A DNA stretch of 55,449 bases from a virus (lineage: Duplodnaviria; Caudoviricetes), in the IMG/VR virus record IMGVR_UViG_3300042564_001643, positions 1 to 55,449 of that record, one strand, 5' to 3'. A model generated the notes under the pieces. That model searched no databases and was not told the origin of the DNA. It saw only the letters and a list, made by a program, of their open reading frames with translations. Below are positions 15,054 through 43,622 of the stretch, in pieces (position 1 is the first letter of the stretch; the number at the start of each line of letters is the position of its first letter). A program made the translations under genes and the position numbers.

Positions 15054-15105
15054 ATATATGTAAATATATCAAAATTTTATAAGTTTAATAAACCTATAAA
15101 GTTTA
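15054..15105 (-). promoter_or_regulatory. Putative promoter (TTTA-N20-TATATTTA) with two palindromic operator-like sites
   Basis: Intergenic and near-identical to 21361-21412. Spacing matches the Bacteroidota -33 TTTG / -7 TAnnTTTG architecture. Confidence 0.6.
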
Positions 15106-17808
15106 GTAGAACATAAATGGGAAGATATTAGAACCCATTACATACATTCCACCATCTTTTGCATTAGCATTATCCATGATTGTTTCAACATCAGGTCCAG
15201 CATATCCAGATGATTGACCCATTGCTATCTTAGCTGCAGCAATTGCATCTTTAGGAGCAAATCCTTGTGTTATATAGCCTTTAAGTAAAGTATCAAAAGT
15301 TTTATTAATCTCTGGTTGTTGTTTTTTACCACCTGTAAACACAACTGTACCTGTTCTAGGATCGATATCATACTGTGGTGCAGTAGCATTAAGTAATGCT
15401 ATATCTCCTGCATTTTTCCATCCAGTTTGGAATGCTTGTCTTTTAATTGAATCAGCTAATCTTCTATCTCTGTCATACGTAGCATTTGTCAATGTTGTCC
15501 CATCTACTAATTGTTTAGTAATAGCTTGATTCATTGCTCTCTCTTGATTTCTAATACCAACATTATTTTGACCAACTTGATTAGCCAACTGTACATTAGC
15601 ATTGTTATATCTAGATAGAACATCTGCTGCTTGTTTAGCACCTTGACCTTGAACTTGTGATGATCTTGATGATAATGCTTGAGGTCCTACAAACTGTGCT
15701 AAACCTTGAGTAAGAATATTTGCTTGCTCAGAGTTTGCTGCTAGTTCTCTTGTAGGATCTAAGTATATTCCTACATTCTCTTCATTATCAACTGGAGCTG
15801 CCCATGGATAATACTTACGTAAAGAAGCTTTATCTTTAAGTGCTCCATAGTAATTATTTAAATCAGGAGTTGTCCACTCAGGTACTGTAACTACAGGAGC
15901 TGTTTCTTCTTCTTCTAGATCAACTAGATCTGGTCTATCAGTTCCTTCACATTCATTACACTCACCCTTTTCATTTTTACCTGGATCATATGTTTTACCA
16001 TTAGCATCTGTACACTGACAAGTTAAAACTTTCTTAATTGTTTTTTCTTGTTTTGCTGCAGGTGTATAATTTAAACGTTGACCCAATGTAGTATTAGTAC
16101 TAGCATTGTCAATCCCTGAAATAGATTCTCTACCTTTTAGTTCATCACTTTTACCAGTTTGTTTAACACCTCTTTGTTTTTCTTCACCACCTTTAATAAC
16201 ATCATCATATGCTAAGTAAGCTGCTTGAGACAAGTAACCTTTATCAAAAGATAAATCGGATAAACCTGGATTATTTGCAATTAAATCAGAAGCTTGTTTA
16301 TTGACTCTTTGACCTTTAGCAGTTGGTTGATCTGTTTCTAATGCATTAAGCCCAAAAGCTTCTAATCTTGCATTTCTTTCTTCTTGTTGTAGCAATGCAT
16401 CTATAACCTCATCTTCTTTACGGTCTTTTAATGCTTGATGCCAGTTACTTTTTTTACCACCAGTATAGTTAGCTTCTTGATCAATTACTTTCTTATATTG
16501 CTCATATACTTTTTTACGGAAATCAGGATCATTCTTAATTGCTTGTTCAGCAGATCTATAAGCTAAATAAGCATCAGTCTTTCCGTTCCATTTTGTATCA
16601 ACTATCTTTTGTTCTTCAGGTGTTAATGCTGCAGTACCTGTACCACCACCAACCTGGTATTTAACACCAGGTTGCTTAGTAGCCAATCCAGGATACCATG
16701 TATTCATTTTTTGAAACTTTCCATCTTTCAAGAATGCATCTTTAGACATACCAGTTGGTGCATTATACCAATCTGCATTTTGCATGGCTTCCATTGCATC
16801 TAACCTTATTCTCTGTTCATCAGTAAGGGCTGGCTTTTCTATTTCAGGTTTATTCATGTTATCTGCAATATATTTATTAAATGCATCAACATTTATACCT
16901 TCTTGAGCTTCAGGCATATAACCACCATAAGCCATATAAGAAGGCATTTCATAACCATACTGAGCCATAGGTTGTTGACCCATAGCTTGTTCCATCATCA
17001 TTGCATCTTCATCAGGCATTTGTTGCATACCAGAGTTATCATAGATGTTTTCTTCTTCAGTAGGATTCTCTGGTGCAGTGCCATTATCAGGAATTTCACC
17101 TGGACCGCCTGCAACACCTGGTGTAGGTTGTTGAGTTTTTGGTTGATACGTAGGCATAATGTCTTCTTCTGAAATTCCATTAGCTTCCATATATGGTTGT
17201 GCTACCATAGGTATACCTTGTGGGAAACCTTTCTTAGCTTCTTGTGCAAGAGCAAGAGCTCCTAACTTCATATTGTAGTTACGGATCATCAACTCTGCAG
17301 TCTTCTTAGCAATTACATCTGTATCAGGATCTTGAAGTATTTTTCTATACTTATTAATATCATACTGCTTAGCTAATTGAGCAGGAGTATAACCTTTAGA
17401 CTTTTTCCCGTCAGCAGAACCCTTACCAAATCTAGACAACATAGCAGGATCTTTAATCAACATAGATCTTGTATCACTGAATATAAATGTATCATCCGGC
17501 AAGTTCAATGGAACTCCACCAGATGAGTGTCTTGGACCTTCAATATTATAGTGTTCTGCAAAGCCATCACCATTGATGTCTCCGTATGCAGTTTCTCCAC
17601 CTTCAGCTTCTAAGTTAGCTTCTTCTCTTGGTACACGTTTAAGTGACTTTTGAAGTTCTATAGGTTTCTTACCCATGTACTGATCAATATCAGCACCACC
17701 CATTGCTGTTGGTTGGATAGCTAATGCACCATTTAATTGTTGACCAGTCTTAACTGTTCTACCTTGTTGAGCTTTAGGAAGCTTCTTTATCTTTACTTTG
17801 TAATACAT
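15103..17808 (-). CDS. Putative virion cargo protein (901 aa) with EAEGGE...GPRHSSGGV domain and GG-linker motifs
   Basis: Has LEAEGGE...GPRHSSGGVPLNLP...FIFSD, a motif I recognise from Bacteroidota phage virion proteins, plus a MAYGGYMPEAQEG linker and a Q/N-rich helical C-terminal half. Confidence 0.6.
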   Translation of the reverse strand: MYYKVKIKKLPKAQQGRTVKTGQQLNGALAIQPTAMGGADIDQYMGKKPIELQKSLKRVPREEANLEAEGGETAYGDINGDGFAEHYNIEGPRHSSGGVPLNLPDDTFIFSDTRSMLIKDPAMLSRFGKGSADGKKSKGYTPAQLAKQYDINKYRKILQDPDTDVIAKKTAELMIRNYNMKLGALALAQEAKKGFPQGIPMVAQPYMEANGISEEDIMPTYQPKTQQPTPGVAGGPGEIPDNGTAPENPTEEENIYDNSGMQQMPDEDAMMMEQAMGQQPMAQYGYEMPSYMAYGGYMPEAQEGINVDAFNKYIADNMNKPEIEKPALTDEQRIRLDAMEAMQNADWYNAPTGMSKDAFLKDGKFQKMNTWYPGLATKQPGVKYQVGGGTGTAALTPEEQKIVDTKWNGKTDAYLAYRSAEQAIKNDPDFRKKVYEQYKKVIDQEANYTGGKKSNWHQALKDRKEDEVIDALLQQEERNARLEAFGLNALETDQPTAKGQRVNKQASDLIANNPGLSDLSFDKGYLSQAAYLAYDDVIKGGEEKQRGVKQTGKSDELKGRESISGIDNASTNTTLGQRLNYTPAAKQEKTIKKVLTCQCTDANGKTYDPGKNEKGECNECEGTDRPDLVDLEEEETAPVVTVPEWTTPDLNNYYGALKDKASLRKYYPWAAPVDNEENVGIYLDPTRELAANSEQANILTQGLAQFVGPQALSSRSSQVQGQGAKQAADVLSRYNNANVQLANQVGQNNVGIRNQERAMNQAITKQLVDGTTLTNATYDRDRRLADSIKRQAFQTGWKNAGDIALLNATAPQYDIDPRTGTVVFTGGKKQQPEINKTFDTLLKGYITQGFAPKDAIAAAKIAMGQSSGYAGPDVETIMDNANAKDGGMYVMGSNIFPFMFY

Positions 17809-17817
17809 AGTTCAAAG

Positions 17818-20800
17818 TTATAAATATTCTAATTCACCACCATCTGCAAGGAATTGATCTATCTCATCCTGCGTCATGTAAGCTTCTTCATCTTGATCAT
17901 ATTCTGGCATAGTGTAACCACCTTCTTGAAGAAAACCACCATTTCTAATAATACCTTTGAATCCCATTTGATCAGGTCTAAATAAACCGGAATTGGTATC
18001 ATAGGTACCACGGTCTTGCAAGTTTGTTGATCCATATAAGTTATCTCCAGTAAGGTTATCATAGAAATTTTGCTGTATTCCTTTATCACCTCTTTCACCT
18101 AGTTTTTGAATACCAAAGTTAGCAAGTGTATTAAACTGATTTACACCTCTTTCAAAATCAACATTATACATGTTTTTGTTTTTGAACTTAGCTGCATAAC
18201 CTTGTCTTTCAATTTCAGGTTCTTTATCTTCTAATCCCCATGATTCTCTAATTTCCGGCTCAACTGATTCCCAAACATCTTTAGATGATTTTGGCTTAAG
18301 TTCTGCCATTGGTTCAATGTCACTTACACCAATCATTCCACTCTGAGCTTGTGGAAGATATCCGCCATATGCCATGGTAGTATTTGGTTTACCTTCACCA
18401 AATTCATAATAATCTGGAAATGAATTACGCTTCTGCATATCAATCATATCTGGATTATATGGAGCATACTCACCAAATTCTGATTTAGGAGCAACACGTG
18501 GTTCCCTATTTAGATTCAGATTCAGTTGATCATTAACAAATGCTCTGATACCTTTTGTTGGAACATCATTAGCTCTTTGATCTGCTGCAGTACTATTATT
18601 ATTAATAGTAGTTTTTTCAGTAGGAGCAAAATTACTAGAAGGATACATTCTTGCACCTACTTGTCTTAATCCAGGAGTTCTCAATAATAAGTCAGCAAGC
18701 TTTTGTCTTCTTGATCCTTGAGCCATTTGATCCTCATTGTCAACATTACTATCTGCTGCCTTACCATCCTTAGTGTCAAATTGACCATAGTTACCAAAAT
18801 ACATAGTATACTCTTTTGGTCTTTTACCAAATAAGCTAGTTTTAGTTACATCAATCTTACTCAATGGTTGGTTACCCATCATAGCAGCATTAACAGGTTT
18901 CCCTGTTCTTGGATCATAAGTCATTCCTTGTTGTTGTGCCCATGAACCAGCATACTCTATTGTTCTACCTGCAGGACCAAACTGTCTTCTTCCTCCAAAC
19001 ACTGGAGGATACATAGCACCCGTTTGTGGATTGTAAGTAGTATTAGACTTAGAACTAGGAATAACTTTAGAATAATCAATACCTTCTCTATACTCACCTA
19101 CATTAACACCAGCAGCTTTAGCTTTATCATAAACTTCTTTATTCTTATCTACTGTAGTTTCATCTACAGTAGTTTCATCAGGATAATAGTCAGCCATCCA
19201 CTGATCATAAGACACAGGGTTTTGTCTAGAGTATCCTTCTGTAACATCATCACCATACATTCTGTCAAGCCAATCTTTGTATTCAGCTTGTTTACTTCCT
19301 CCTGTTTGAAAATATGGATCAGCAGTATTTTCCTCAAATGGTGTAGGTACAGCATCATCTCCACCATATACAAATTTGTATAGACCGGAATCTTCCATAG
19401 TCATACCACCAAACTGTTTCATCTCACCTGTAACATAACGTCCTGATGATTGAAAATTATCATCAAGATATTTCCATTGAGCATTGCTTTTATCTTTTTT
19501 AATAAGAGCAACTGGCTCTTTATTTATATAATGTTGAGCGGTGTCACCTTTAAATTTAGCATATGAACCATCATTCAGTTGTCTATAATAATAACCTGGT
19601 TTCTTTTTAAGTGTTCCTAGTATTGCTCCCTTTGTTCCTTTACCACTTACAGCACTAGTATTTAACTTTGCTAATGTTTTTTTATCTTTTACAGGAAATG
19701 ATTTAGCACCTTCACGAAGTGTACCGTCATCATTGGGTACAGTATAGCTCCAACTTCCACGTTCATCTACACTATAGAGATATGGAGTATTATCTAAGTA
19801 CTGATATTGACCTGCTGTACTAAAAAATTGATTTGGTTTAAACTTCTCAATGTTTTTAATTCTAGTTGGGTCTGTAACTTCAGTCCAAGTTTCATCTTTA
19901 ATTGCTGTATCTGTTTCATAGTTTGAGTTTACATACCATTTATCATTTACTTTTACATAGCCAGCTTTAGGATTACCTGGATTAAATACTACATCCTTAG
20001 TAGTATAATTAATTGCATTATTACTAGATTCAGTTATAGGTTTAGCTTTAGGAGCTACCTCAACTTTAGGTTTTTCTTCAGCTTTAGTAATTTCAGTATT
20101 AGCTTCTGTAGCTCCATTATTAGTGGTACTACTTCCTTGATCCTGAATAGCTTTAGTATCTTCTGCTGTTGTTACTTTAGTTTTTTCAGCTTCAGTCTTT
20201 ACTTCTGCATTTTTTTCTGTTGCTGTATTCTTAGCATCTACCTCAACCTCAGTCCAAATTTCTTTAGCTTTTTCTTGTTGATTGTTTGCTTCTTGTTTAA
20301 CTACATCCTCACGTAACTTAGGATTGTTATAAGCTTCTTGTGCAAAAGTAATACTGTATTCTTTTGGTCTACCAAATAAACCAGTTCTTCTGACATCAAT
20401 ATTAGCAAGTTGTGGACCACCAGCATATGAACCTTGATCAGGCATAATAAATTGTTGAAGTCCCGTCATTGGCATACCCATTCCCATAATATTCATTTGT
20501 GTAGGGAACATTTGAGATCTGTTATTGAACATACCTGCAGGCATTTGACCCATCATGCGGTTTGCTCTTCTGTTCATTCTACGCATTTGTCCTGGACGCA
20601 TACCACCTAACTGCATATAATCTTGATCAGTATCATAACCATAATCAAGATTATTAGTCATATCTTGTGAATACATATCATACATAGCTTCAGCATCTTG
20701 CTTCATTAAAGCTTGATTTGCATGACCTTGTAAACCTGTGATAAAATCACTCAGTCCATTCTTTCTTACACCTGTATCTGTATCATCTGCTTTGTTTGAT

Positions 20801-21351
20801 GTACCGTCCCCACCCATCTGTTTCTTAGTAAGGTTCATTACATTTTTTACAAATGTTCTTTTGTTAGGTAAAGCTCCTCCAAACTTTGCAATAATATTTG
20901 AAGCTACATCTGTATCATCTCCATAGTCTGTAGTATCTTCATTGTCAGTCATCATCTGTTGATAACGTTGCTTTCTTGCTTCATACTCTTGATCAGCTTC
21001 TGCTTGAGCAGTTAGAGCTGCATCTTCCTCAGCAAGTTTATTAGCTTCATAATCTTGACCAGACATTTCTGCATTGCGTTCTTCAGCTTGACTATTAATA
21101 TAATTAACTGCTGACTCAACTAATTGACTTGCTTTTGCTTGATCTACTCCAGCTGAAACTAATTGATTTAATGCATCTTCAGGAGTACCACCTTGCTCAC
21201 CTATAATAGTCATGACAGAACTAATTAGTTGCTCATCACTATATTGAGGTTGCTGTTGTGTACCACCTTCTTGTGCTCTCCATGGAGCAGCAGTTTTCAT
21301 TGAGAATGGATTACTCCCACCTGCTCCATATATTCTTACACGTTTCTTCAT
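17818..21351 (-). CDS. Putative internal virion protein (1177 aa), modular, many xxGG motifs
   Basis: Long low-complexity ORF with >10 xxGG motifs and an internal duplication (IDVRRTGLFGRPKEYSITF vs IDVTKTSLFGKRPKEYTMYF). Confidence 0.55.
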   Translation of the reverse strand: MKKRVRIYGAGGSNPFSMKTAAPWRAQEGGTQQQPQYSDEQLISSVMTIIGEQGGTPEDALNQLVSAGVDQAKASQLVESAVNYINSQAEERNAEMSGQDYEANKLAEEDAALTAQAEADQEYEARKQRYQQMMTDNEDTTDYGDDTDVASNIIAKFGGALPNKRTFVKNVMNLTKKQMGGDGTSNKADDTDTGVRKNGLSDFITGLQGHANQALMKQDAEAMYDMYSQDMTNNLDYGYDTDQDYMQLGGMRPGQMRRMNRRANRMMGQMPAGMFNNRSQMFPTQMNIMGMGMPMTGLQQFIMPDQGSYAGGPQLANIDVRRTGLFGRPKEYSITFAQEAYNNPKLREDVVKQEANNQQEKAKEIWTEVEVDAKNTATEKNAEVKTEAEKTKVTTAEDTKAIQDQGSSTTNNGATEANTEITKAEEKPKVEVAPKAKPITESSNNAINYTTKDVVFNPGNPKAGYVKVNDKWYVNSNYETDTAIKDETWTEVTDPTRIKNIEKFKPNQFFSTAGQYQYLDNTPYLYSVDERGSWSYTVPNDDGTLREGAKSFPVKDKKTLAKLNTSAVSGKGTKGAILGTLKKKPGYYYRQLNDGSYAKFKGDTAQHYINKEPVALIKKDKSNAQWKYLDDNFQSSGRYVTGEMKQFGGMTMEDSGLYKFVYGGDDAVPTPFEENTADPYFQTGGSKQAEYKDWLDRMYGDDVTEGYSRQNPVSYDQWMADYYPDETTVDETTVDKNKEVYDKAKAAGVNVGEYREGIDYSKVIPSSKSNTTYNPQTGAMYPPVFGGRRQFGPAGRTIEYAGSWAQQQGMTYDPRTGKPVNAAMMGNQPLSKIDVTKTSLFGKRPKEYTMYFGNYGQFDTKDGKAADSNVDNEDQMAQGSRRQKLADLLLRTPGLRQVGARMYPSSNFAPTEKTTINNNSTAADQRANDVPTKGIRAFVNDQLNLNLNREPRVAPKSEFGEYAPYNPDMIDMQKRNSFPDYYEFGEGKPNTTMAYGGYLPQAQSGMIGVSDIEPMAELKPKSSKDVWESVEPEIRESWGLEDKEPEIERQGYAAKFKNKNMYNVDFERGVNQFNTLANFGIQKLGERGDKGIQQNFYDNLTGDNLYGSTNLQDRGTYDTNSGLFRPDQMGFKGIIRNGGFLQEGGYTMPEYDQDEEAYMTQDEIDQFLADGGELEYL

Positions 21352-21360
21352 ACTGTAACT

Positions 21361-21412
21361 TATATATTAAATATAATAAATTTTGTCTGACTTGATAAAC
21401 TTATAAAGTTTA
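21361..21412 (-). promoter_or_regulatory. Putative promoter (TTTA-N20-TATATTTA) with perfect TAAACTT-N3-AAGTTTA palindrome
   Basis: The minus strand reads TAAACTTTATAAGTTTATCAAGTCAGACAAAATTTATTATATTTAA directly upstream of the 1177-aa gene. Confidence 0.6.
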
Positions 21413-23971
21413 ATCTAATTCTTCTATATAATAACCTGCATCTCTGTATGCTTGGATTTCTTCATCTGTTAATTCAGTATCTATAGATCCACCATCTTGT
21501 TCTTGCATCATTCCTATGTCAGCACCATATACATAATCACGTAAAGTTTTTCTTCCTTCATTAAGATGTATAGGTCCTAGCTTACCACCTTTAGCATACA
21601 TTGTAGGACCTTCATTAAATCCATAAGCTCTACGTGTATATTCTTCACCAACTTCTCTACCGCTATCTGGATCATAGCCTGGTAAGAAACCAATTGGTCT
21701 TACACCATCTAAGCTAACTGGCTCATATTCTCTTTTTTTTCTGTCTGGTCTAATACGTTTTCCACCGCCATTATCTGGTGGAGTAATTATTTCTATTTCT
21801 CTTTTTGGTCTATCATCATGTACTGGTTGAACATCAGTAGGATCTTCATCAAATGTTTCTTTATCTTTTTTTCTTTGTTCCTCTGCTTTCTCTTGTTTTT
21901 TTAATATGTTCGGAATAAAAGGATAAACTAAATTAGCTTTAACCATTGGAGTCCAACCAACAGGAGTATCACTATAAGGTGCTTCAGCTAATTTTTTTGC
22001 AGGATTCATTGCCAAACTTGCATCAAAACCCATTCTTACTGGTGAATGTCTAAAAGGTTTGATTTCAAATCCTGCATTACCGCCATAGAAACCTGTAGCA
22101 TGACTACCACTTTTATCTGTTCCTGCTGTTGAAACATCACCATATTGAATACTAGGATCAAAGCCTAAACTTCTCACACCTACACCTGCTGTAGGACCTA
22201 CATATCCTTTCCATGCACCGTGTGGCCAGTTTTGTTGATTATATTTCCAATCTTGGTTATTAGCAAACTCAGCTCTAGGGTTTGCCATGATTCCAAAATT
22301 AAGTCCTTGTTGTGGATCATAACCTGCATGAATATCACTATGAACCGTTGGTAAAAAACCAGATTCTACTGGTCTACCTCCGGTATATCTTCCATGATAA
22401 TTAGCTTTTACACTAGGAACAAATTTACCACTATAAGGTAATCCAACATCTAAAGATACATTATGATTATATTTACCTTGATCTTTACCAGGTAATCTTT
22501 TAGTTGCTCCTATTAATAATTCAGGATTATATTCACCAAATACTTTACTTGCTAATGGAGCAGCATTAGCATTAAGACTATAGGGTGACATCCTAAATGT
22601 AACGTTTTTTCCAAATTGTGCTTCTGGTAAATAACCACCTTGTTCAAAAGTATAACTATGTTCTTTATCCCATTCTTGAGCAGCGGCTTTTGCTTCTTGT
22701 TGATTATAGTATTTTTTGTTACCAACTTGCCAAACATGGTGTCCACTTTCTGGTAGCTCATTAGATTTATTATATTCCCATGTATGCTCATTTAACTTTT
22801 CACCATATGGTAATGTAGCTTGTTTACTACCCATATTTTTAAAACTTCCTGAACTAGGATCATAAGCATGTTGCCATTGATCTCTATATCTGAAAGCCAT
22901 GTTAGCTTGTTCTGGTCTAACTTGAGTCGGGAATGTTTGTGGAACTATTTCATTACTTGGTACATCAAATGTTTTTAGAGGTAACAATGGTAACTTTGTA
23001 ACTTCTTCAGATTGTGGTTCAACTTGTGTTTTATTTTTAGTAATTGTTTGACTTGGCTTTTTATTTGTAGAAGTTAATCCTTTAAGTTTTGATGCAGGTA
23101 TACCACTAGTACCATACTTTTTAACTCTTGCCTTTACTTCAGCAGGAGTTAACATATTACCGGGTTTTACAGCAAGAGGATCGTAATAAGGTAATGTTGT
23201 GACCCAACCAGGTAGTTTATCTTTTGCTACAGAAGTTCCTTTTGGTTTATAATTAATAACACCTTGCGGTTTTATGTTTTTGTTATATTCTAAAAGAGGT
23301 GCATACGGGTCTAGTAATTCAGGAACCATATCTAACAGATATAATTTATTTGGATCCTTGTTTGCTTTAATAGTCTTTTTTTTAACATCCATGTATCTAT
23401 TCAACTTATCATCTAAAGCATCATAGTTTAAATGTTGTCTTTGCATGTCTTTTAAAACATTAAAAGTGTTCATATTATCCCATGGACTAATATCTACACT
23501 TCTATAATAAGGTTTTAATTTATCATAATAAGCTTTTTGTCTTAGTGCATTATTATAAACAGATAAGCTATCTGCTTGTGTTGCTACACCTTTCTGAGCT
23601 TTAGTAAGTTCAGGTACTGAGATATCTTCTACAATGTATCCACCCTTTCTATACTCTTCAATCTCAGCATCTGTAAGATCTGCTTCAAAGTAATCTTCAT
23701 CTGTACCTTGAGGAAACTCATCTACATAGTCTGCACCGGGAAATGTATACTCCATACCCGGATACATCATCTGTTCTTGCCCGTTAGAGCCAACACCAAG
23801 TACAGGATAATTTACACCCTGCATTGTAATATTACTACTTGGTATTCTTGTATTCTCTCCAGGATGTTTCCACTGACCCATAGGATCTACAATAATATCT
23901 TTTTTCTTTGCGGGTGCTTTTGCTTTATCCAATCCAGCAGTAGCTCTATTTAATACTTTCTTATTATACAT
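21410..23971 (-). CDS. Putative internal virion protein (853 aa), modular, with beta-rich central domain
   Basis: N-terminal DPMGQW...NITMQGVNYPVLG...MYPG domain, AQxG/xxGG linkers and a duplicated LTDxEIxxYRxxGY motif. The start abuts the stop of the upstream tail gene. Confidence 0.55.
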   Translation of the reverse strand: MYNKKVLNRATAGLDKAKAPAKKKDIIVDPMGQWKHPGENTRIPSSNITMQGVNYPVLGVGSNGQEQMMYPGMEYTFPGADYVDEFPQGTDEDYFEADLTDAEIEEYRKGGYIVEDISVPELTKAQKGVATQADSLSVYNNALRQKAYYDKLKPYYRSVDISPWDNMNTFNVLKDMQRQHLNYDALDDKLNRYMDVKKKTIKANKDPNKLYLLDMVPELLDPYAPLLEYNKNIKPQGVINYKPKGTSVAKDKLPGWVTTLPYYDPLAVKPGNMLTPAEVKARVKKYGTSGIPASKLKGLTSTNKKPSQTITKNKTQVEPQSEEVTKLPLLPLKTFDVPSNEIVPQTFPTQVRPEQANMAFRYRDQWQHAYDPSSGSFKNMGSKQATLPYGEKLNEHTWEYNKSNELPESGHHVWQVGNKKYYNQQEAKAAAQEWDKEHSYTFEQGGYLPEAQFGKNVTFRMSPYSLNANAAPLASKVFGEYNPELLIGATKRLPGKDQGKYNHNVSLDVGLPYSGKFVPSVKANYHGRYTGGRPVESGFLPTVHSDIHAGYDPQQGLNFGIMANPRAEFANNQDWKYNQQNWPHGAWKGYVGPTAGVGVRSLGFDPSIQYGDVSTAGTDKSGSHATGFYGGNAGFEIKPFRHSPVRMGFDASLAMNPAKKLAEAPYSDTPVGWTPMVKANLVYPFIPNILKKQEKAEEQRKKDKETFDEDPTDVQPVHDDRPKREIEIITPPDNGGGKRIRPDRKKREYEPVSLDGVRPIGFLPGYDPDSGREVGEEYTRRAYGFNEGPTMYAKGGKLGPIHLNEGRKTLRDYVYGADIGMMQEQDGGSIDTELTDEEIQAYRDAGYYIEELD

Positions 23972-31874: not shown

Positions 31875-32765
31875 TTAAACCTCTTCTACCATAATTTGGG
31901 CTTTTAGTAATCTACCAACAGAACCTGCTTTACTTTTAAACTTAAGTGAAACAGTCTCATTTGGTGCCAATGTAACTACTTGGTAAAAAGAAACATTTGT
32001 AGGAATACGCGTATTATAAAATCTAAACTCAACTGGGTTCACACTTGGTGTAGTAACTACTGTTTCTGTTGTAAGAAAAGTAACTTGCTCTCCAGTAGTA
32101 GGTCCATCAAATAAAGAACCTGCTATATCCTGAGCACCTAAAGTTTCCCATAAAATTGTATCAATAGAACTTACTGTTTTAATAATAGCACCATCAACCC
32201 AATTTGAAAAATCAGCTGTATTAGTCAAAGCTACTGGCACATTTGTATTATACGATACAAATACTTTAAATGTCTTACTAGTTGATGCTGTGTTTGTATA
32301 AGTCAGTGTATTATATCCAGTTGGAAAAAAGTAATTATTAGGACCAGGACTTGGAGCTCCTACTACGATATCAATATCACTTTCAACTTGTTGATTAAAA
32401 AATACTTTAGCTGCTACAGGTGTCAAAGATATTGTGTATGTAGTAGTATCACCAACTGTTGTTGATGTTACATCAATACCTGTACCCTCATTTATTATAG
32501 TAGTAGATCCTGTATTTTCACAGAAGTAACCAATTATATCTTCTAAAGCAAGATTAAGTGGAGTGTTAGTTAATACAACATCATCTAATCCACACTGTAA
32601 ATTAGGTCCTGTATAAACCACACACGCTGCATCAAATACTTCAGAGCATGATTGTTTAGTGGGACAATCAACCGGTGTTGGACATGCAGGAGGAGTAGTT
32701 AGATAACTACCGTTACATCCACATGTTAATTTGTTGCATCCGCAACTTGTACAATTTGTTGCCAT
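31875..32765 (-). CDS. Putative tail fibre/spike subunit, Cys-rich N-terminus (paralogue of 32775-34430)
   Basis: CVVYTGPNLQC motif and a Thr/Val-rich beta C-terminal domain clearly similar to the neighbouring gene. Confidence 0.5.
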   Translation of the reverse strand: MATNCTSCGCNKLTCGCNGSYLTTPPACPTPVDCPTKQSCSEVFDAACVVYTGPNLQCGLDDVVLTNTPLNLALEDIIGYFCENTGSTTIINEGTGIDVTSTTVGDTTTYTISLTPVAAKVFFNQQVESDIDIVVGAPSPGPNNYFFPTGYNTLTYTNTASTSKTFKVFVSYNTNVPVALTNTADFSNWVDGAIIKTVSSIDTILWETLGAQDIAGSLFDGPTTGEQVTFLTTETVVTTPSVNPVEFRFYNTRIPTNVSFYQVVTLAPNETVSLKFKSKAGSVGRLLKAQIMVEEV

Positions 32766-32774: not shown

Positions 32775-34430
32775 TTAAATTTCTTGTACGTAAATCTGAG
32801 CTTGAACAACATAAGCTTCATAACCTGCTATTAAAGTTTTAAACTTTAGACTTACTGATTCATTGTTATTTAATGTCAAACGTTTGAAGCATGAGACATT
32901 TTTTGCTGCACTAAATATTTTAAATCTAGCCTCAACATCTAATACTCCAGGTACTGTTTGTACTTTTTCAGTTGTAGTAATATCAACTATATCAGTAATA
33001 GTAGGTCCGTCAAATAAAGATACACCATGTTGTGTGCTTGCTGCAGAACTTTCCCATTCTATTGTATCAATACCTAATGCAGTTGTTATAATTCCACCAG
33101 CAATCAAATTAGAAATACTTACTGGAGTTGCCATTATAGTTGGGATTTCAGTATCAAAACTCACATTAACAATATAGTCTTTAGTTACTCCTGTTGTATT
33201 TGTATAAGTTAAACTATTGTAACCTAAAGGAAAGTGGAAGACTGCTGTATTTGGAACAGGATCATCATCAACATTTATTGAACCAATAGCTTCATTATAT
33301 GATACTTCTTTTGGTCTTGAGACTGTATACGTTGTATCATTACCTACAGTTACTGGTGTAACTACTATATCATCTGCTCCTACTACAATTGCTTCTTTAC
33401 CTGCAATTGTATATGTAGTAACTCCGGCAACAGGTCCAGTCGGTGTTACAGTAATATTGTCTCCTGCAGTTACCACACTTGACAAAGCATCAATTGTGTA
33501 ATCTGTAACTTCATCACTACCTACTAAAGAAACTGCAGGTGTGACTGTTACATTGTTACCCGCTGTAACTGTTACTAAAGCTTTACCAGCATTTCTAAGG
33601 TCACATAAAGCAATCCATAAATTATTAACTGCATTAGCTAATGTTGTTGGACTTGCTACATAAGCAGGATATGCTACTTGCATTTGAGTTCCTGGAGATG
33701 TATACTGTACTGCTAATGCATCATCTGTTCCTAAAATACATTGTGCTAGTATAGAAGATGCAAGATCAGTAACAGACCCAAACGTTGCTTTGTATGGACA
33801 CCATTCTTCATTAATGAATCTACTAAGTACAACATCAATATCCTGTGTTGATCCTGCAGCTAATGTAGGAATGATAGTTCCAATCTCACACTGAAGAATA
33901 AATGAAGGAATAATAAATGAAGGTACTGGAGTTACTTCTAATGTAGCTACTCTTGTATTCAATGAAGATATACCAGAGTTAATAATATTTATTTCTACAA
34001 AGATGTTACAAATCTGTGTAGCTGCTTGTTGTACATAGTCTACTAATGTAACAGTGCCTCCACCAAAACATGGTGATGCTGTCATTAGATAACTTGATAC
34101 TTCTGGAGATCTTGTACTTACACTTGCAGAAGTTGTTGTAGCAACTGAAGCTGGTACATTTTCAACAGCACAAATTCTATCAATCAAGAATTGCAATAAC
34201 TCTTGATAGTTGTTTGGTCCACATGCTGCTAAATTAAAACATGTAAGGTCATAATTCTGTACATTCAGATAATCTAAAATTGTACAAAGTTCTGTTGCAA
34301 GCTTAAACGTAACATCAGAGATTGTATCACCTTTACAAAGATTAATACAAGGAATGTTAGGACCAGCCCATATCACACAGTTTGATGATACTGGACTACA
34401 TGGTGAGTTATCTAAATTTAAAGGCTTCAT
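32775..34430 (-). CDS. Putative tail fibre/spike protein with short beta repeats
   Basis: CVIWAGPNIPC motif, a short coiled coil (ISSLNTRVATLE), three AG(N/D)N(V/I)TVTP-like repeats and a C-terminal domain paralogous to 31875-32765. Confidence 0.55.
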   Translation of the reverse strand: MKPLNLDNSPCSPVSSNCVIWAGPNIPCINLCKGDTISDVTFKLATELCTILDYLNVQNYDLTCFNLAACGPNNYQELLQFLIDRICAVENVPASVATTTSASVSTRSPEVSSYLMTASPCFGGGTVTLVDYVQQAATQICNIFVEINIINSGISSLNTRVATLEVTPVPSFIIPSFILQCEIGTIIPTLAAGSTQDIDVVLSRFINEEWCPYKATFGSVTDLASSILAQCILGTDDALAVQYTSPGTQMQVAYPAYVASPTTLANAVNNLWIALCDLRNAGKALVTVTAGNNVTVTPAVSLVGSDEVTDYTIDALSSVVTAGDNITVTPTGPVAGVTTYTIAGKEAIVVGADDIVVTPVTVGNDTTYTVSRPKEVSYNEAIGSINVDDDPVPNTAVFHFPLGYNSLTYTNTTGVTKDYIVNVSFDTEIPTIMATPVSISNLIAGGIITTALGIDTIEWESSAASTQHGVSLFDGPTITDIVDITTTEKVQTVPGVLDVEARFKIFSAAKNVSCFKRLTLNNNESVSLKFKTLIAGYEAYVVQAQIYVQEI

Positions 34431-37951: not shown

Positions 37952-37972
37952 AAGTCCTTGGTTTTTATATGG

Positions 37973-38515
37973 TTAACAATTTTTACAATCAAACTTATTT
38001 AAAAGCTTCATAGCATAGTTATAAATGGTCATTGCATTTTGTGCTTCTAGACAATCCTCTGCTTTTGCTTTTGCTGCTTCCAAATAAATTCTTATTAATC
38101 TAAGAGTTTCTAATTTCTCTTTTATTTTTTGTGGAGGCTCACATGATGGAAGATCCAAAGAACACATAGCTTTTCTCCACTTAGTTAATGCAGTAGTGAT
38201 TCTTAAATGATTGTACTCAACATATACAACATCATTTGGAGATACACTATATTTAATTACATACAAACCATCAGGTAGTGGGGCATACTGCTGACCACAT
38301 AATGCAGTTTGTATTTGTAAATCACATGCTGTAAATACATTTGAAAAAAGCTGTGATACATTAAACTGTGTTGAATATCCATAACCAGGAACTGTGATAT
38401 TTAAAGTTTCACAAGTAACTGGTACTGACGGATTGTAAACACTTGTATCCATAATTGAAAGGATACATGTATTCATTACTGTTGGTACCTCTAGACTTAA
38501 TACATGATTTGCCAT
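37973..38515 (-). CDS. Putative structural protein (tail hub/fibre-attachment-like)
   Basis: 180 aa with an LPDGLYVIKYSV beta domain and a helical C-terminus ending DCKNC. Position in the structural block. Confidence 0.5.
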   Translation of the reverse strand: MANHVLSLEVPTVMNTCILSIMDTSVYNPSVPVTCETLNITVPGYGYSTQFNVSQLFSNVFTACDLQIQTALCGQQYAPLPDGLYVIKYSVSPNDVVYVEYNHLRITTALTKWRKAMCSLDLPSCEPPQKIKEKLETLRLIRIYLEAAKAKAEDCLEAQNAMTIYNYAMKLLNKFDCKNC

Positions 38516-38525
38516 AAGATATAAT

Positions 38526-38572
38526 ATAAAAGAAAAGGAGAGGAGAGATAAACTCCCACTCTCCCTTTTCTA
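38526..38572 (-). terminator. Rho-independent terminator
   Basis: Imperfect hairpin AGAAAAGGGAGAGTGGGAG / CTCTCCTCTCCTTTTCT followed by a T-tract, after the 542-aa gene. Confidence 0.7.
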
Positions 38573-38592
38573 GTTTAAAAAATTTGTATGAA

Positions 38593-40221: not shown

Positions 40222-40242
40222 TGTGTTCTGTTTTAATTAATA

Positions 40243-40284
40243 AATATATACTTTAATATAGTAAAATAATTTAGTATTTCAAAA
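40243..40284 (-). promoter_or_regulatory. Putative promoter (TTTG-N19-TATATTAA)
   Basis: Intergenic, upstream of the 542-aa structural gene, with the same TATATT core. Confidence 0.55.
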
Positions 40285-40800
40285 TTATTTCAAGAATAAT
40301 AACTTGTACTTAGTAGAATTAATTGAATCCTTAACTAAATCTAAATTGTTAACAATCTCAGAGTATGGCATCATACCCTGTAATTTGTTAACCATGTTAT
40401 ACATATCTCTAAGATATTGTACACCATCAGCTACAGTGTCTAATGTTCTAATAGGCATATCCGTATAGCTTAAAAGTTTTTCAGCCACACCTTGATAACC
40501 TTCAACCAATGTATCTGCACTATCATGAAGACCCTCATAAAAATTTCCTAGAGCTTTGTGTGCTGCATAAGAACCATCCCCTTTAACTTTTAAGTGAAGT
40601 CTATGAAAACTTGTAGCAGCATTCATCATTTCTGTTGCACATGCAGCAGTCATTGTATCTAATGAGCTACCACCAACTCCAGTATTTGGAGTAGGTTTTG
40701 GTTTAGCAGATTCTTCTTTTGGTTGTGTAACAACAAGTTCAGGTCTACTTACAGTTTGTGTAGATGATGGATCTCTTTTTAGTATTCTAGGTTTTTCCAT
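40285..40800 (-). CDS. Ferritin/Dps-like four-helix protein
   Basis: FHRLHLKVKG..SYAAHKALGNFYEGL...D.LVE.YQG matches the Dps-like HW...H..L..Y...D..E pattern. Disordered N-terminal extension. Confidence 0.7.
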   Translation of the reverse strand: MEKPRILKRDPSSTQTVSRPELVVTQPKEESAKPKPTPNTGVGGSSLDTMTAACATEMMNAATSFHRLHLKVKGDGSYAAHKALGNFYEGLHDSADTLVEGYQGVAEKLLSYTDMPIRTLDTVADGVQYLRDMYNMVNKLQGMMPYSEIVNNLDLVKDSINSTKYKLLFLK

Positions 40801-40805
40801 TATTA

Positions 40806-41504
40806 TTAATTATTACGCTCTGAAGTTTGTGTACCTCTAGAGAATTGATTTACTGATTCAATATCACCTGCAATTATACTAGCAGCATCATCAAGAATTA
40901 CTTCAATGATATCATCTTTGAATTCACATAACACATTTGATGTAGACTCTTCTCCTGTGTATGGATCAATACATCCTTGTATTTGTATTCTTCTTGGTTG
41001 TCTGTAATATGTTATTGCTGTCTTGCTGATCTCAAAGTCATCATTAGTATAGATGTATACTTTGTTATTCTTAATAGTAGCAAATGTCTCTGCCCACGCA
41101 AAACTTGGTTTCTTACCATCATCTCTTAGTAATTGATTTATGTTAGCTTCTTCTGCTAAATAAATTGTCATACGTCTGTTATCACAGCATCCTTGTTTTG
41201 CATATGCATCAACTCTTTTCCACTGTAAGTAGTTTTCAGGAATAGCAATAGAATAAGCTATTTGCTCATTATTTGCAGGCAAATCAGTTGTAATAAGTAA
41301 AGCCTGAAGGTCATCAATTCTACGTGTAGATTGTTCATCACCTTCCTTAACTACATTAAGACCATGAAGTTGTCTTCTAGACCACTCAACTTGGGCTTTA
41401 TTAAATGCCTCAACTATTTGCCAACATTCAATGTTGTCATAGTCTTGGCTATCTAATTTATTAAGCCTTTGTTTAATCTTTATGGATATTACACTATTTT
41501 GCAT
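40806..41504 (-). CDS. Tail ring / head-tail connector protein
   Basis: LNKLDS...FNKAQ...RRIDDLQ.L...YYRQP pattern of crAss-like ring proteins. Synteny supports the call. Confidence 0.65.
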   Translation of the reverse strand: MQNSVISIKIKQRLNKLDSQDYDNIECWQIVEAFNKAQVEWSRRQLHGLNVVKEGDEQSTRRIDDLQALLITTDLPANNEQIAYSIAIPENYLQWKRVDAYAKQGCCDNRRMTIYLAEEANINQLLRDDGKKPSFAWAETFATIKNNKVYIYTNDDFEISKTAITYYRQPRRIQIQGCIDPYTGEESTSNVLCEFKDDIIEVILDDAASIIAGDIESVNQFSRGTQTSERNN

Positions 41505-41507
41505 TTC

Positions 41508-42047
41508 TTATCCTTTAACTCTTTTTAAACGTGGGTTAGCAGCTTTTGCTTTTGGACTAGCTTTACGTGTTGCTGAAGCTAAGATAGCTCCGGCAGCTTT
41601 TTTAGAAATTCCTTGCTTAGCTGCAATACCAGCTTGCACTGATTTGAAACCTGGATGAGCTGCTCCACCTTTTGCCATTTTAGTTTTAGTAGCTCCCCCT
41701 TTTTTCATTGGACCCATTCTTCTTTTGTATTGCTCAAAAGTTTCATCACTTGATGGTTGTCCTGATTCACTTCTCCAATTTTGTCCATATGTTTTTTCAT
41801 ATGCTTTTTCAAGTGTACCTTGATTTTTTGGATTCTTAGCAATAGGTTTCTTCGGAGCATCCCAAGTACTTTGAGGATACATTGTTTGCATTACCGTATC
41901 ACTAGCTACTGCTCCCGGTGTTTTCATATATTGTTGAAACGGTGTACCAGTAGAAGTTCCTGTCTGTGCTTTACGTAAAGGTTTTTTAACTCCACCTTTC
42001 TGCATCATAGGTTTTTTAGATGCAACTTTCTTTACAGTTTTTCTCAT
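41508..42047 (-). CDS. Lys-rich basic protein with xxGG linkers (putative core/DNA-condensing protein)
   Basis: Contains MQKGG, AQTG, MKKGG and MAKGG. The C-terminal module is HPGFKSVQ...PRLKRVKG. Confidence 0.6.
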   Translation of the reverse strand: MRKTVKKVASKKPMMQKGGVKKPLRKAQTGTSTGTPFQQYMKTPGAVASDTVMQTMYPQSTWDAPKKPIAKNPKNQGTLEKAYEKTYGQNWRSESGQPSSDETFEQYKRRMGPMKKGGATKTKMAKGGAAHPGFKSVQAGIAAKQGISKKAAGAILASATRKASPKAKAANPRLKRVKG

Positions 42048-42052
42048 GACAA

Positions 42053-42439
42053 TTATTTTCTTTTTCTAGCTCCTGCAATTCTATCAGCTGCAGTAGGTCT
42101 TGGGTTTTTATCAATTCCGGCTTTCACAGAAAGCATACCAAATGTAGATCCACCTTTCTTAAACTCAGATGGTCTTTGGTTAACACATCTACCTTCAGCA
42201 GATCTAACCATACCATTACGGCAAGAAGGTTGTACTGCACGGCTTGAACCACCTGTTTGCATTTTACCATATTGCCCTGATGTCCCCATGTTTTCTTGAG
42301 GCATACCAAACAAAGATACTTTAGCTTTACCTATTGCAGGTTTAGAAAGTATATTACCTCCTTTAGCCATTTTTTTAGGAGCGGTTCCTCCTTTAGAATA
42401 TTTAGTGCCTCCACATTTAGCACATCCCATTTTTGCCAT
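42053..42439 (-). CDS. Lys-rich basic protein with xxGG linkers
   Basis: Contains AKCGG, YSKGG, MAKGG, MQTGG and FKKGG. The C-terminal module is FGMLSVKAGIDKNP. Confidence 0.6.
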   Translation of the reverse strand: MAKMGCAKCGGTKYSKGGTAPKKMAKGGNILSKPAIGKAKVSLFGMPQENMGTSGQYGKMQTGGSSRAVQPSCRNGMVRSAEGRCVNQRPSEFKKGGSTFGMLSVKAGIDKNPRPTAADRIAGARKRK

Positions 42440-42451
42440 GATATATAAATT

Positions 42452-42874
42452 TTAACAATTCCATTTTCTTAAAGAAAGAGCCTTTCTAGTAGGTCTTCCT
42501 TTTTCATCCTTCATAGGTCCAGGCATACCTGACATCCTAGCACAGAATGATTTTCTTCTTTTAGCATCTTTACTACCTGCCTTTAATTTTGAAGGTTTAG
42601 TAGTCACAGCTGTCTGAAGTTTACTACCAGGATTAGCAGCTCTATATGAAGCTACTCCTTTTGCATTTAAACCTCCAGAAGGATTCTTACCTTCTTTTCT
42701 TGTCCAAGCAGGGGTACTACCACCTTTTTTCATCTTAGCAGTTTTAGCTGATTCAATGAAAGCTTTAGCAGTAGGTGCACCTTTAGTTCCAGGTTGTCTC
42801 ATTGACTCCCCGGAACCTGATGCTATTCTTTTTCTTTTAGCGTGGATATTGCTATATAAGCCAGCTTTCGCCAT
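42452..42874 (-). CDS. Basic two-module protein (GLYxNIHAKR module + AWTRKEGK...RRKSFCAR...WNC module)
   Basis: Two short basic modules that I recall from aquatic phage proteins (the second is DUF6321-like, from memory), joined by MKKGG. Confidence 0.6.
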   Translation of the reverse strand: MAKAGLYSNIHAKRKRIASGSGESMRQPGTKGAPTAKAFIESAKTAKMKKGGSTPAWTRKEGKNPSGGLNAKGVASYRAANPGSKLQTAVTTKPSKLKAGSKDAKRRKSFCARMSGMPGPMKDEKGRPTRKALSLRKWNC

Positions 42875-42875
42875 C

Positions 42876-43622
42876 TTAACATTTTTTACCTTTCATCATT
42901 CCACCCATCTTAGCTTTTGGAGTTGCTCCTTTTGGTGCAGTAGATGTACCACCTACACGTCCTTTAGCTACTTTAGATGCAGTAACTTTAGTATTAACAC
43001 CTGATTTAACTCCTTTAGAGCCTGCAGTTTTAATAGCAGAAACCTTAGCATTTGAGTTAACCATACCACCTGTTTTATATGCTGATAGTGATTTACTTGT
43101 ACCACCGTATTTAGCCATAGCTGGTTTTGGTGTTGAAGCTTCAGGACCTTTAGTTTTTGGTATTTTACTATCTACGTATTTTTTACTCATCTTAGGTGCA
43201 TACTTTGATACACCACCTTTTTGCATTTTTTTAACAGCACCCCCTTTTTTATAAACGGAACCCTTATTAAAATCTTCTGAAGAACGTATACCCTTTTCAG
43301 AATACATTCTATTTTTCATTTCCATTTCTATTGGATCATTACTAAAACCATAACCTGGATTAAAATTATCTGAATCATAATCTTTTGGTGCAGCTGGAAT
43401 ACGTACACTACTTGTTGATGGATACCAAGAGTCTAACCTGTCTGAATCAGATTCAGTCATTGGACCTGCTTTTCCACCTGCTTGTTTTTTAGCTAATGAC
43501 TTTTTCATTGTAGCTCCACCCATTTTCATCTTAGGACTATTAGCCTTTGCTACAGTTTTTTTAGCTCCTCCACTTTTCATCATGGACTTACCATACATAG
43601 CTTTTGAAAGTTTACTTTTCAT
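42876..43622 (-). CDS. Lys-rich basic protein with ~9 xxGG motifs
   Basis: Contains MKSGG, MKMGG, KQAGG, YKKGG, MQKGG, AKYGG, YKTGG, GRVGG and AKMGG. The composition is histone-H1-like. Confidence 0.6.
   Translation of the reverse strand: MKSKLSKAMYGKSMMKSGGAKKTVAKANSPKMKMGGATMKKSLAKKQAGGKAGPMTESDSDRLDSWYPSTSSVRIPAAPKDYDSDNFNPGYGFSNDPIEMEMKNRMYSEKGIRSSEDFNKGSVYKKGGAVKKMQKGGVSKYAPKMSKKYVDSKIPKTKGPEASTPKPAMAKYGGTSKSLSAYKTGGMVNSNAKVSAIKTAGSKGVKSGVNTKVTASKVAKGRVGGTSTAPKGATPKAKMGGMMKGKKC

Follow-up and report, generated by a model that had tools for sequence, protein, structure and literature searches.

What is the role of a short Gly-Gly peptide that recurs in seven otherwise different proteins of a single phage? 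The question is raised by a stretch of 55,449 nucleotides of viral DNA (IMG/VR record IMGVR_UViG_3300042564_001643, Caudoviricetes), called the window here. It comprises the virion module of a marine phage that is a distant member of the crAss-like group. An earlier note on this DNA had described about 30 motifs of the type xxGG, together with AQxG variants, as a linker code shared by three large cargo proteins of 901, 1177 and 853 residues (positions 15103-23971) and four small basic proteins of 179, 128, 140 and 248 residues (41508-43622), and had proposed polyprotein processing or capsid packaging as its use. All seven open reading frames (ORFs) are confirmed on the minus strand at these positions. 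We observe that the motif is enriched, that it stands at module borders and in predicted disordered linkers, that it is conserved in relatives, and that the junction in front of one widespread module changes with the phage lineage. By analogy to the scheme of capsid-targeting sequence (CTS) and gp21 in T4, the Gly-Gly joints could be the maturation cleavage sites of the crAss lineage, a reading to which we give an even chance. That the joints are cut, when and by what, we infer.

Motif enrichment in two gene clusters

In the seven proteins, [MFYAK]xxGG is found 32 times (3, 9 and 3 in the 901-, 1177- and 853-residue cargo proteins; 3, 5, 1 and 8 in the 179-, 128-, 140- and 248-residue basic proteins), AQxG 8 times (3 + 2 + 2 + 1) and GG 53 times in total. 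The background was taken from 2000 composition-preserving shuffles per protein. It predicts 10.6 matches for [MFYAK]xxGG (z 6.9; 0 of 2000 shuffles reach 32) and 1.65 for AQxG (z 5.1), and in the four basic proteins M..GG is present 9 times versus 0.64. GG by itself is only modestly enriched, 1.6-fold over the 33.8 copies in shuffles; therefore the excess lies in the motif context and not in the glycine content. The patterns were picked after inspection of the sequence, and the p-values are therefore optimistic. The remaining 24 ORFs (14,407 residues, including portal, large terminase subunit (TerL), ring proteins and major capsid protein (MCP)) contain 20 copies of [MFYAK]xxGG versus 13.8 expected (p 0.06) and 2 of AQxG versus 2.45, which is no excess. 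Both the number of motifs given in the earlier note and its remark that they are inconspicuous in portal, TerL and ring proteins are thus borne out.

The same restriction is seen in G006, an uncultured relative that is 96% complete and has an MCP 92% identical to that of the window. Seven of its 102 ORFs have at least three motif matches. Five of these are two basic proteins in the cluster behind the MCP gene and the three cargo proteins behind the muzzle gene; the remaining pair, with three matches each, is the muzzle protein and a Gly-rich fibre-like ORF of 569 residues. G006 is independent support for the restriction of the motif to two gene clusters, and the signal is confined to internal and cargo proteins.

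An origin by chance, from the composition of Gly/Lys/Met-rich low-complexity proteins, could appeal to the post hoc patterns and to the excess of GG alone. It was tested here and is rejected, with negligible probability left to it, given the shuffles, the two-cluster restriction in G006 and the fact that, as described below, 111 of 120 and 63 of 121 homologues conserve the motif at the aligned position.

At the DNA level, the 53 Gly-Gly codon pairs (GGT GGT 23, GGT GGA 13, others 17) follow the usual Gly codon usage of the genome, and the genes of this genome are without Shine-Dalgarno sequences. Normal codon usage and the lack of Shine-Dalgarno sequences therefore indicate that selection acts on the peptide. 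These findings bear on the idea that the motif is a recombination or fusion seam without peptide function, built from microhomology of A-rich Lys codons, relics of start regions or internal starts at Met. Module shuffling does happen exactly at the joints, and ATG after A-rich codons resembles the start contexts of this genome. Yet synonymous Gly codons vary as they do overall, the peptide pattern is kept though its residues vary, and Met is replaced by Phe or Tyr, which are impossible as start codons. We consider such a seam very unlikely, and a Shine-Dalgarno relic or internal start as the origin of the motif is ruled out by the normal Gly codons, the lack of Shine-Dalgarno sequences and the Phe/Tyr replacements.

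Form and position of the joint

The core signal is Phi-[K/Q]-x-G-G, where Phi is Met, Phe or Tyr, and AQxG is its stand-in at the same aligned joints. A weight matrix from 95 distinct GG windows of basic proteins of this phage and its relatives reads Lys, Met or Phe/Tyr, Lys/Gln, any residue, Gly-Gly, Ala/Ser. Met accounts for 39% of the third residues before Gly-Gly (8.3-fold), the next position is Lys in 47% or Gln in 15%, and Ala or Ser follows directly after Gly-Gly in 41%. The 215 GG windows of cargo proteins have Tyr, Phe or Met at the third position before Gly-Gly, and after it, in succession, Tyr, a hydrophobic residue and Pro. Such position-specific preferences would fit recognition by an enzyme rather than a plain hinge.

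Behind one and the same N-terminal module, the joint varies among relatives between KMQKGG, KLKLGG, PKAQKGG, PKAQRG and KAQKG. At the N-terminus of the 901-residue family, Phi-P-x-A-[QRKA]-x-G is present in 71 of 120 homologues and Phi-P-x(2-3)-x-GG in 40 of 120, at the same place, which makes 111 of 120 together. Because xxGG and AQxG alternate at the same aligned joint, we regard them as variants of one signal, in agreement with the shared linker code of the earlier note. The exact form is narrow, since the strict DNA pattern GGY[LIM]P[EQ]AQxG has only 11 loci in IMG/VR. An assignment of AQxG to the A-x-E sites of phage SPN3US was rejected, as only two AQEG copies would fit.

Relatives conserve the motif, which is placed where modules meet and in linkers predicted to be disordered. 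The 901-residue cargo protein (15103..17808, minus strand) has three [MFYAK]xxGG motifs and 1815 homologues at E ≤ 0.001 among 8000 scored. Its disordered N-leader has LPKAQQG as its end; a conserved N-domain follows, then a disordered linker with a 13-residue motif, a variable middle part and a helical C-domain. In the comparison with 120 homologues, similarity to 93 of them stops at residues 290-319, right after the 13-residue motif (292-304), and a second break in 26 homologues follows GGG at 387-389. The motifs thus do fall between unrelated blocks, as had been noticed from the sequence. In the AlphaFold2 (AF2) model (mean predicted local distance difference test, pLDDT, 62), residues 1-46 and 221-310 are below 50; 7 of 10 GG sites are in segments of pLDDT<50, and these segments make up 32% of the protein (binomial p 0.015). 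The leader end KKLPKAQQG is encoded at 17761..17787 (minus strand); the 111 homologues have the signal within their first 30 residues, and the orthologue of Leptolyngbya phage Lbo-JY46 has LPKAQIG at this place. No match to the 901-residue protein is found in Pfam, NCBIfam or PDB sequences (best profile-versus-PDB-sequence E 0.87), and a Foldseek search of its model against PDB gives no match at E ≤ 0.001.

For the basic proteins, an unfiltered count of starts of high-scoring segment pairs places 9 of 33 internal starts near GG versus 6.2 expected, which is not significant. This test was replaced by explicit comparisons of standalone and fused modules.

Basic proteins and the DUF6321 junction

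The four basic proteins, all on the minus strand, contain 13-19% Lys and 10-16% Gly. The 248-residue protein (42876..43622, Lys 19%) has eight [MFYAK]xxGG motifs and a leader with the end MMKSGG; in relatives, GG flanks its modules. In the 140-residue protein (42452..42874), the N-module of residues 1-46 is followed by the joint KMKKGG (42719-42736) and then by the DUF6321 module (42455-42718; Pfam E 1.9e-24). Membership in DUF6321 (PF19846) is clear with 86.5 bits at a cut-off of 28.5 over residues 62-138, and PHROG 16028 spans residues 1-49. All five GG of the 128-residue protein (42053..42439) are in [MFYAK]xxGG context, and the leader of the 179-residue protein (41508..42047) ends in MMQKGG, followed by KAQTG. 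Leaders of 11-19 residues with a Gly-Gly end are thus found on three of the four proteins, a T4-type leader form known here from sequence. Relatives have 4 to 9 basic-protein genes built of shuffled modules, and the four basic module families occur either as standalone genes or directly behind a Gly-Gly joint. Searches of Pfam, PHROGs and NCBIfam with the cargo and basic proteins return only DUF6321 and the PHROG on the 140-residue protein and a sub-threshold DUF5792 on the 179-residue protein.

The DUF6321 module allows the junction to be compared across phages, with 3245 representatives at E ≤ 0.001 and occurrence in 596 phage records, mostly of cyanophages and pelagiphages. A module of at least 90% identity was compared in 120 proteins: it follows Phi-K-x-GG immediately in 82, is standalone in 33, has V-x-E in front in three and is unclear in two. 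Of the 87 fusions in this near-identical set, 82 thus have Phi-K-x-GG, and the 20-residue stretches upstream of it make up 58 distinct contexts; a control at random positions gives 1.7 of 85. The 33 standalone proteins begin with M-A-K-T or similar. A different junction prevails among the 150 representatives at 50% clustering, where 130 have [LIVMF]-x-E within 4 residues upstream, seven have GG, 11 another sequence and two are standalone, so Phi-x-E precedes the module in 130 of 148 more diverse fusions (random-position control 6.5 of 90).

The T4-like cyanophages P-SSM2, P-HM2, S-RIM44, S-CAM7 and ACG-2014e place Glu 0-1 residues before DUF6321 in five of five cases and [LIV]-x-E in four of five, and have more Glu joints between other modules as well as short N-terminal leaders. 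These leaders resemble what we take to be the form of the T4 capsid-targeting sequence. In the T7-like pelagiphage HTVC168P and cyanophage S-CBP4, the two modules of the 140-residue protein are separate genes between the scaffold and capsid genes; T7-like phages are not known to have a prohead protease. As judged from these sequences, the junction swaps with lineage: it is the motif of the resident protease in T4-like phages and Gly-Gly in the crAss-like clade, and the modules are unjoined in the two T7-like phages. According to the available text of PMC9026906, gp21 cuts after L/I-x-E and belongs to the T4 core genome, the first ten residues of IPIII direct proteins to the T4 core, and T4 relatives have varied basic proteins with such leaders; T4 targeting and gp21 processing are further covered in PMC3012670 and PMC7411985. 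The lineage-specific swap is our main argument for considering the Gly-Gly joint a cleavage site and the four basic proteins internal head proteins comparable to the internal proteins (IPs) of T4, which they would be by analogy.

A different role for K-M-x-K-G-G in the basic proteins would be that of a repeated DNA-binding or charge-neutralising unit, spread by duplication of paralogues and without a function at borders. The 13-19% Lys, the 4 to 9 genes per relative and the weak mutual paralogy of the four proteins (E about 1e-4) are in line with it. Against this, one and the same module is linked by the joint to at least 58 different sequences upstream, the joint is common to the acidic cargo proteins, and Met/Phe/Tyr at a fixed position is left unexplained. 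We give this explanation very little probability.

Two further observations concern the same modules. The Pelagibacter phage HTVC168P has three tiny basic genes, gp29-gp31 (L014:5894-6395), between its scaffold and capsid genes, which match the basic modules of the window, with identities of up to 66% between phages of very different families; this suggests that basic modules are exchanged freely among marine phages. In T4-like cyanophages, 'gp114' proteins adjoin the terminase genes (P-SSM2 gp114, L034:4425-5240; S-CAM7, L038:13-1131; P-HM2, L036:364-1257). In these proteins the same small modules, Cys-containing and basic, follow one another with Phi-x-E as the joint, and CTS-like leaders are present in some; the proteins look like unrecognised internal-protein polyproteins of cyanomyoviruses.

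Cargo proteins and terminal tags

The three large proteins behind the muzzle gene would be ejected 'polyvalent' cargo, with delivery suggested by synteny with crAss001. The 1177-residue protein (17818..21351, minus strand) has nine [MFYAK]xxGG and two AQxG motifs and an acidic C-terminal tail. Blocks homologous to it are present in the relatives G001 (1313 residues), G006 (1609 residues) and L017 (967 residues). A search for related loci with this protein found none, and tblastn with the protein and with a 51-residue TAG-1 stretch against 50,697 phage records gave no match. The 853-residue protein (21410..23971, minus strand) is composed of a basic head, module A, an internal TAG-1 with an AQKG joint, a payload, Gly-Gly and a C-terminal TAG-1. 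In a protein of 117 residues (P0414), the first 118 residues of the 853-residue protein are found as a gene of their own, which is a gene fission.

Module A (residues 26-91; 23699..23896, minus strand) is a portable N-terminal domain that is also found in Lbo-JY46. In 107 of 115 shorter homologues it is N-terminal, and 7 of 8 internal copies have GG within 3 residues upstream; in other cargo proteins, both of the two internal copies begin right after GG. Shorter homologues of the 853-residue protein from other phages (P0449, P0454, P0504, P0507) combine module A with a VanY, phage lysozyme or SLT transglycosylase domain, and module A may be the virion handle of ejected wall-degrading enzymes.

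TAG-1 is an acidic element of about 20-30 residues with a consensus of roughly L-T-x-E-E-I-x-x-Y-x-x-x-G-Y-x-V-E-E-L. In the 853-residue protein it is present internally as acidic helix, turn and strand followed by the P...KAQKG joint (23588..23680), and at the C-terminus with A-G replacing G-G (21413..21481); a variant ends the 1177-residue protein (17821..17886; all minus strand), and the same tail ends the G001, G006 and L017 orthologues. The C-termini of both proteins, of their orthologues and of many shorter homologues carry TAG-1, which also recurs internally and is retained in Lbo-JY46. A regular expression, chosen post hoc, matches three times in the window versus 0.02 in shuffles. The Phi-Q/K-x-GG joint stands before TAG-1; within the element, Gly-Gly is not conserved and is often Q-G, A-G or L-G. 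A role in docking is more likely for TAG-1 than one as a cleavage site. The proposal of one single code thus holds for the Gly-Gly joint, but the acidic C-terminal tail is a second element without conserved Gly-Gly.

The 13-residue motif of the 901-residue protein, TAG-2 (MAYGGYMPEAQEG; 16897..16935), is in a predicted disordered linker and has copies in the 1177- (18337..18375) and 853-residue proteins (22610..22648), all on the minus strand. The composite GG...AQxG motif is found in 63 of 121 members of the 901-residue family, so conservation at aligned positions, which the earlier note had set as a check, is observed here as well as at the N-leader. GGY[LM]P is found three times versus 0.01 in shuffles. 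TAG-2 reads as though the end of TAG-1, in shortened form, had been joined to the P-x-A-Q-x-G terminus of a basic leader. From the TAG-1 tails and the leader ends it follows that the units have basic heads and acidic tails, and that fusions keep both.

Domains of the cargo can be recognised in relatives (SET, GNAT, PG_binding, lysozyme, VanY and SLT), while the three cargo proteins of the window are without a recognised Pfam domain. In the 1757-residue cargo protein of G001, Pfam places SET at residues 115-161, GNAT at 881-950 and PG_binding at 1107-1149, each between Gly-Gly sites. Across the relatives' cargo (G001, L013:6703-11976; G006, L032:2504-6505), SET methyltransferase (E 1.5e-9), GNAT, peptidoglycan-binding, a chitin-binding-like module and a weak zincin (DUF6782) are found. 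As far as these domains indicate, the injected cargo looks like a set of host-modifying enzymes.

Cleaved or uncut joints

The seven proteins are strings of exchangeable modules with the joint peptide between modules and at the ends of short basic N-leaders. In the mechanism that we propose, the fusions would be loaded into the procapsid via leaders and tails and would then be diced into small payloads at the Phi-[K/Q]-x-G-G / A-Q-x-G joints, with the acidic TAG-1 tail acting in docking rather than in cutting. Cleavage is favoured because the joint appears only where modules are fused, as the standalone DUF6321 proteins are without it. In its most specific form, an unrecognised Gly-Gly-specific crAss maturation protease, possibly the zincin-like domain of a packaged RNA-polymerase-associated protein, would dice IP-like and cargo proteins into dozens of payloads, with heads and tails as loading handles; this we put forward tentatively, at clearly less than even probability.

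Several findings weigh against cleavage. Cleavage has been observed for no member of these families. The polyprotein processing suggested by the earlier note has the real but indirect support of the junction swap, Phi-x-E in T4-like phages and Phi-x-x-GG here, but not that of an observed cut. The swap itself rests on metagenomic proteins. Among their sources a crAss-like identity is established only for the window, the IMG/VR loci L001-L007 and G006, and a T4-like one only for the five cyanophages. KMLKGG is present in a 35-residue protein of a T7-like pelagiphage. TAG-1 and TAG-2 are conserved over 13-22 residues, beyond the needs of a protease site, and Gly-Gly is not kept in TAG-1. The crAss001 atlas, in its available text, has no mention of cleavage or protease and describes gp45 as one uncut chain from tail to capsid (Bayfield et al. 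2023, PMC10172136). The gel bands of 85, 100, 270 and >300 kDa reported for crAss001 in 2018 are compatible with intact large proteins, with the band assignments lying outside the accessible part of that report.

The search for a protease points in the same direction. Protease families were searched at E ≤ 1 in five records, of which two have a completeness of at least 90%. S77 (PF03420) and S78 (PF04586) are found in none of the five, where a very divergent homologue is still possible, and neither are the clan CE families C5 and C48, so the adenain/Ulp1-like protease suggested by the earlier note was not recovered; the hydrophobic residue of the joint is moreover one position off the adenain consensus. 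Pfam detects no maturation protease on the 95 of 102 ORFs of G006 that were scanned, nor on any of the 31 ORFs of the window. Peptidase-related Pfam items are a DUF2201 metallopeptidase-VWA protein of the replication module, a ClpS homologue, and zincin matches in relatives' cargo that are below the cut-off (weak DUF6782 and M91). At the canonical position of protease and scaffold, between the portal and MCP genes, is an acidic protein of 420 residues (46389..47651, minus strand) that has no family match and is scaffold-like rather than protease-like. Its AF2 model is all-helical with a long coiled coil, and no protease fold is seen; with a mean pLDDT of 47, the model is of low confidence and proves nothing.

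The only candidate protease seen in the window is the HExxH (zincin-like) domain of a 1622-residue ORF (2-4867, minus strand, open at the window end) with the motif HEAWH at 2237..2251. The G001 and G006 orthologues (56% and 38% identity) retain both the motif and its flanking residues; there is no Pfam peptidase match. This protein is probably a packaged RNA-polymerase-associated protein, a role assigned by analogy to phi14:2. The accessible part of the phi14:2 preprint proposes that the HExxH counterpart cleaves the crAss RNA polymerase polyprotein.

G006 also encodes a ClpS adaptor homologue of 84 residues (L029:14600-14854, E 2.8e-13). Joints cut before Tyr, Phe or Leu would give N-degron termini, and one may speculate that a phage ClpS bears on these.

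If the joints are uncut, Gly-Gly would be a hinge, and the basic heads, TAG-1 and TAG-2 would be docking handles for procapsid loading via portal, scaffold or shell; in a variant, units coupled head to tail would be extruded in order through the tail as a thread, for which fused and split genes are equivalent. We regard this, both forms taken together, as a strong rival, though at less than an even chance. Two of the three cargo proteins and many shorter homologues have TAG-1 at their true C-termini, with conservation as far as Lbo-JY46, and basic heads and acidic tails meet at gene borders, where the fused form retains both. Conservation well past five residues, the lack of protease families in the searched records and the single-chain model of crAss001 gp45, whose segments bind portal and ring proteins in the available account (PMC10172136), agree with it. 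Three findings are difficult to reconcile with uncut joints. Standalone DUF6321 and standalone N-modules are without Phi-K-x-GG, and presence in fusions only is unexpected for a loading tag. A hinge requires no fixed hydrophobic residue or Lys/Gln at set distances. Finally, T4-like phages have the motif of their resident protease at the same joint.

Comparison with known systems

The earlier note knew of no comparable scheme in tailed phages. This is contradicted by the literature, since the T4 CTS/gp21 system with L/I-x-E, the AXE sites of SPN3US and polyvalent proteins with a zincin are all in print (available text of PMC9026906, PMC7411985 and PMC5512222). The concept itself has precedents in T4 and giant phages, in polyvalent proteins and in the cores of African swine fever virus (ASFV) and adenovirus. 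Our literature searches found no description of the motif, of its use at internal cargo joints or of processing in crAss-like phages.

Similar to T4 (CTS/gp21), phiKZ (S/A/G-x-E) and the giant phage SPN3US (AXE; PMC7411985, available text), the window has one short motif on small basic internal proteins and on large ejected enzymes, and its short N-leaders end in the motif; core proteins of T4 and giant phages are cut at many sites. T4-like cyanophages have the Glu motif on homologous modules, DUF6321 and others, exactly where the window phage has Gly-Gly. In contrast to T4 and the giant phages, the motif here ends in Gly-Gly and is also found at internal joints of very large proteins and near C-termini. 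No S77/assemblin-like protease gene was found in the five records, and the joints end in G-G or A-Q-x-G, not in L/I-x-E as in T4. Like polyvalent proteins, the cargo consists of large multidomain proteins that would be delivered with the DNA, and GNAT, peptidoglycan-acting and zincin-like domains are seen in the cargo of relatives, though no Pfam domain in that of the window. For polyvalent proteins, release of domains by an embedded zincin peptidase has been predicted (Iyer et al. 2017, PMC5512222); the available text of that paper has no occurrence of 'linker', 'glycine' or 'Gly-Gly', and crAss is absent from it.

Adenain of adenovirus, SUMO/Ulp1-type processing enzymes and coronavirus PLpro are Gly-Gly-specific cysteine proteases. 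Like their substrates, which are core or polyprotein precursors cut after Gly-Gly, some joints of the window have the form Phi-Q-x-G-G, as in the SUMO tail. The adenain consensus (M/L/I)-x-G-G has its hydrophobic residue two positions before Gly-Gly, whereas Met/Phe/Tyr in the window is three positions before it, one further upstream. Unlike in these systems, a C5/C48 domain is lacking in the searched records. In ASFV, pS273R cuts Gly-Gly-Xaa (PMC7178854).

Another comparison concerns TAG-1. Encapsulin cargo-loading peptides are short conserved terminal peptides on otherwise unrelated cargo of an HK97-fold shell. TAG-1 could act in a like manner, but without sequence likeness, and unlike encapsulin cargo the cargo of crAss001 is near the portal and not at the shell wall (PMC10172136, available text).

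The crAss001 cargo proteins C1 (gp45) and C2 (gp46) are at the same genomic position as the cargo of the window, behind the ring and muzzle genes (PMC10172136). No sequence similarity between the two sets is detectable, with no Pfam cargo family at E ≤ 0.5 and no tblastn match. Gp45 (L040:11988-14516) contains 21 GG in 842 residues and 10 copies of [MFYAK]xxGG versus 3.7 expected (p 0.004), for instance in A-[FY]-G-G contexts, and Gly-Gly is present twice in its basic tail; gp46 is without the motif. The vicinity of gp45 GG sites to the ends of fragments resolved by cryo-EM was not used, since it is the chance expectation for 21 GG in 842 residues.

Crassviruses are the most abundant human-gut phages, and relatives are common in sea and lake water. 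A conserved joint code would provide a handle on the loading and release of about 5 MDa of crassvirus cargo, as it predicts where cargo is cut or docked, defines unit payloads and marks the four basic proteins as internal head proteins. For the packing of foreign proteins, the joint code would be a portable tag similar to the T4 targeting sequence. Should the joints be cut, a protease of new specificity would await discovery, Crassvirales would have a processing step reported by no structural study, and the threading model of crAss001 gp45 would need revisiting: its fragments in tail and capsid would be separate pieces and not one chain through the portal.

Genomic setting and neighbouring genes

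Pfam and PHROGs recognise a crAss-type MCP (Crass_capsid, E 5.2e-30), ring proteins 2 (CrAss_Ring_2, E 7e-23) and 1 (CrAss_Ring_1, E 1.3e-7), portal and TerL in the window, the latter two by PHROG matches. MCP and ring genes are syntenic with portal, TerL, muzzle and cargo genes, as expected for a Crassvirales-like virion module. Every long ORF is on the minus strand. From right to left, the genes are those of TerL, portal, the acidic 420-residue protein, MCP, a 338-residue protein and the four small basic proteins, followed by structural and fibre genes, ring 2, ring 1 and an 1828-residue muzzle-like protein, and then by the 853-, 1177- and 901-residue proteins and proteins of 1014, 2377 and 1622 residues. 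This order equals the layout of crAss001, in which the available text of PMC10172136 places the genes for cargo and virion RNA-polymerase proteins behind the muzzle gene. The closest isolates, Lbo-JY46 and Cellulophaga phages, share just 23-29% MCP identity, and close relatives are uncultured contigs only. An ESM Atlas search with the 338-residue protein finds viral clusters without names only.

Adjoining the basic proteins inside the virion module is a ferritin/Dps-like protein (40285-40800; DUF5856, PHROG 'starvation-inducible regulator'), whose G006 orthologue matches Pfam Ferritin with E 1.8e-25. The 2377-residue probable virion RNA-polymerase protein (4872-12005) contains a PD-(D/E)XK nuclease-like domain at residues ~1400-1690, paralogous to a separate nuclease gene of 277 residues upstream of the terminase (53232-54065). 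Its residues 348-585 hold a local cluster of M/K-x-GG-like sites, and the whole protein is not enriched (13 GG versus 9.1). Two adjacent fibre-like proteins of 296 (31875-32765) and 551 residues (32775-34430) have a C-terminal domain of ~210 residues in common (42% identity, E 3e-39) and share a Cys-containing N-terminal motif.

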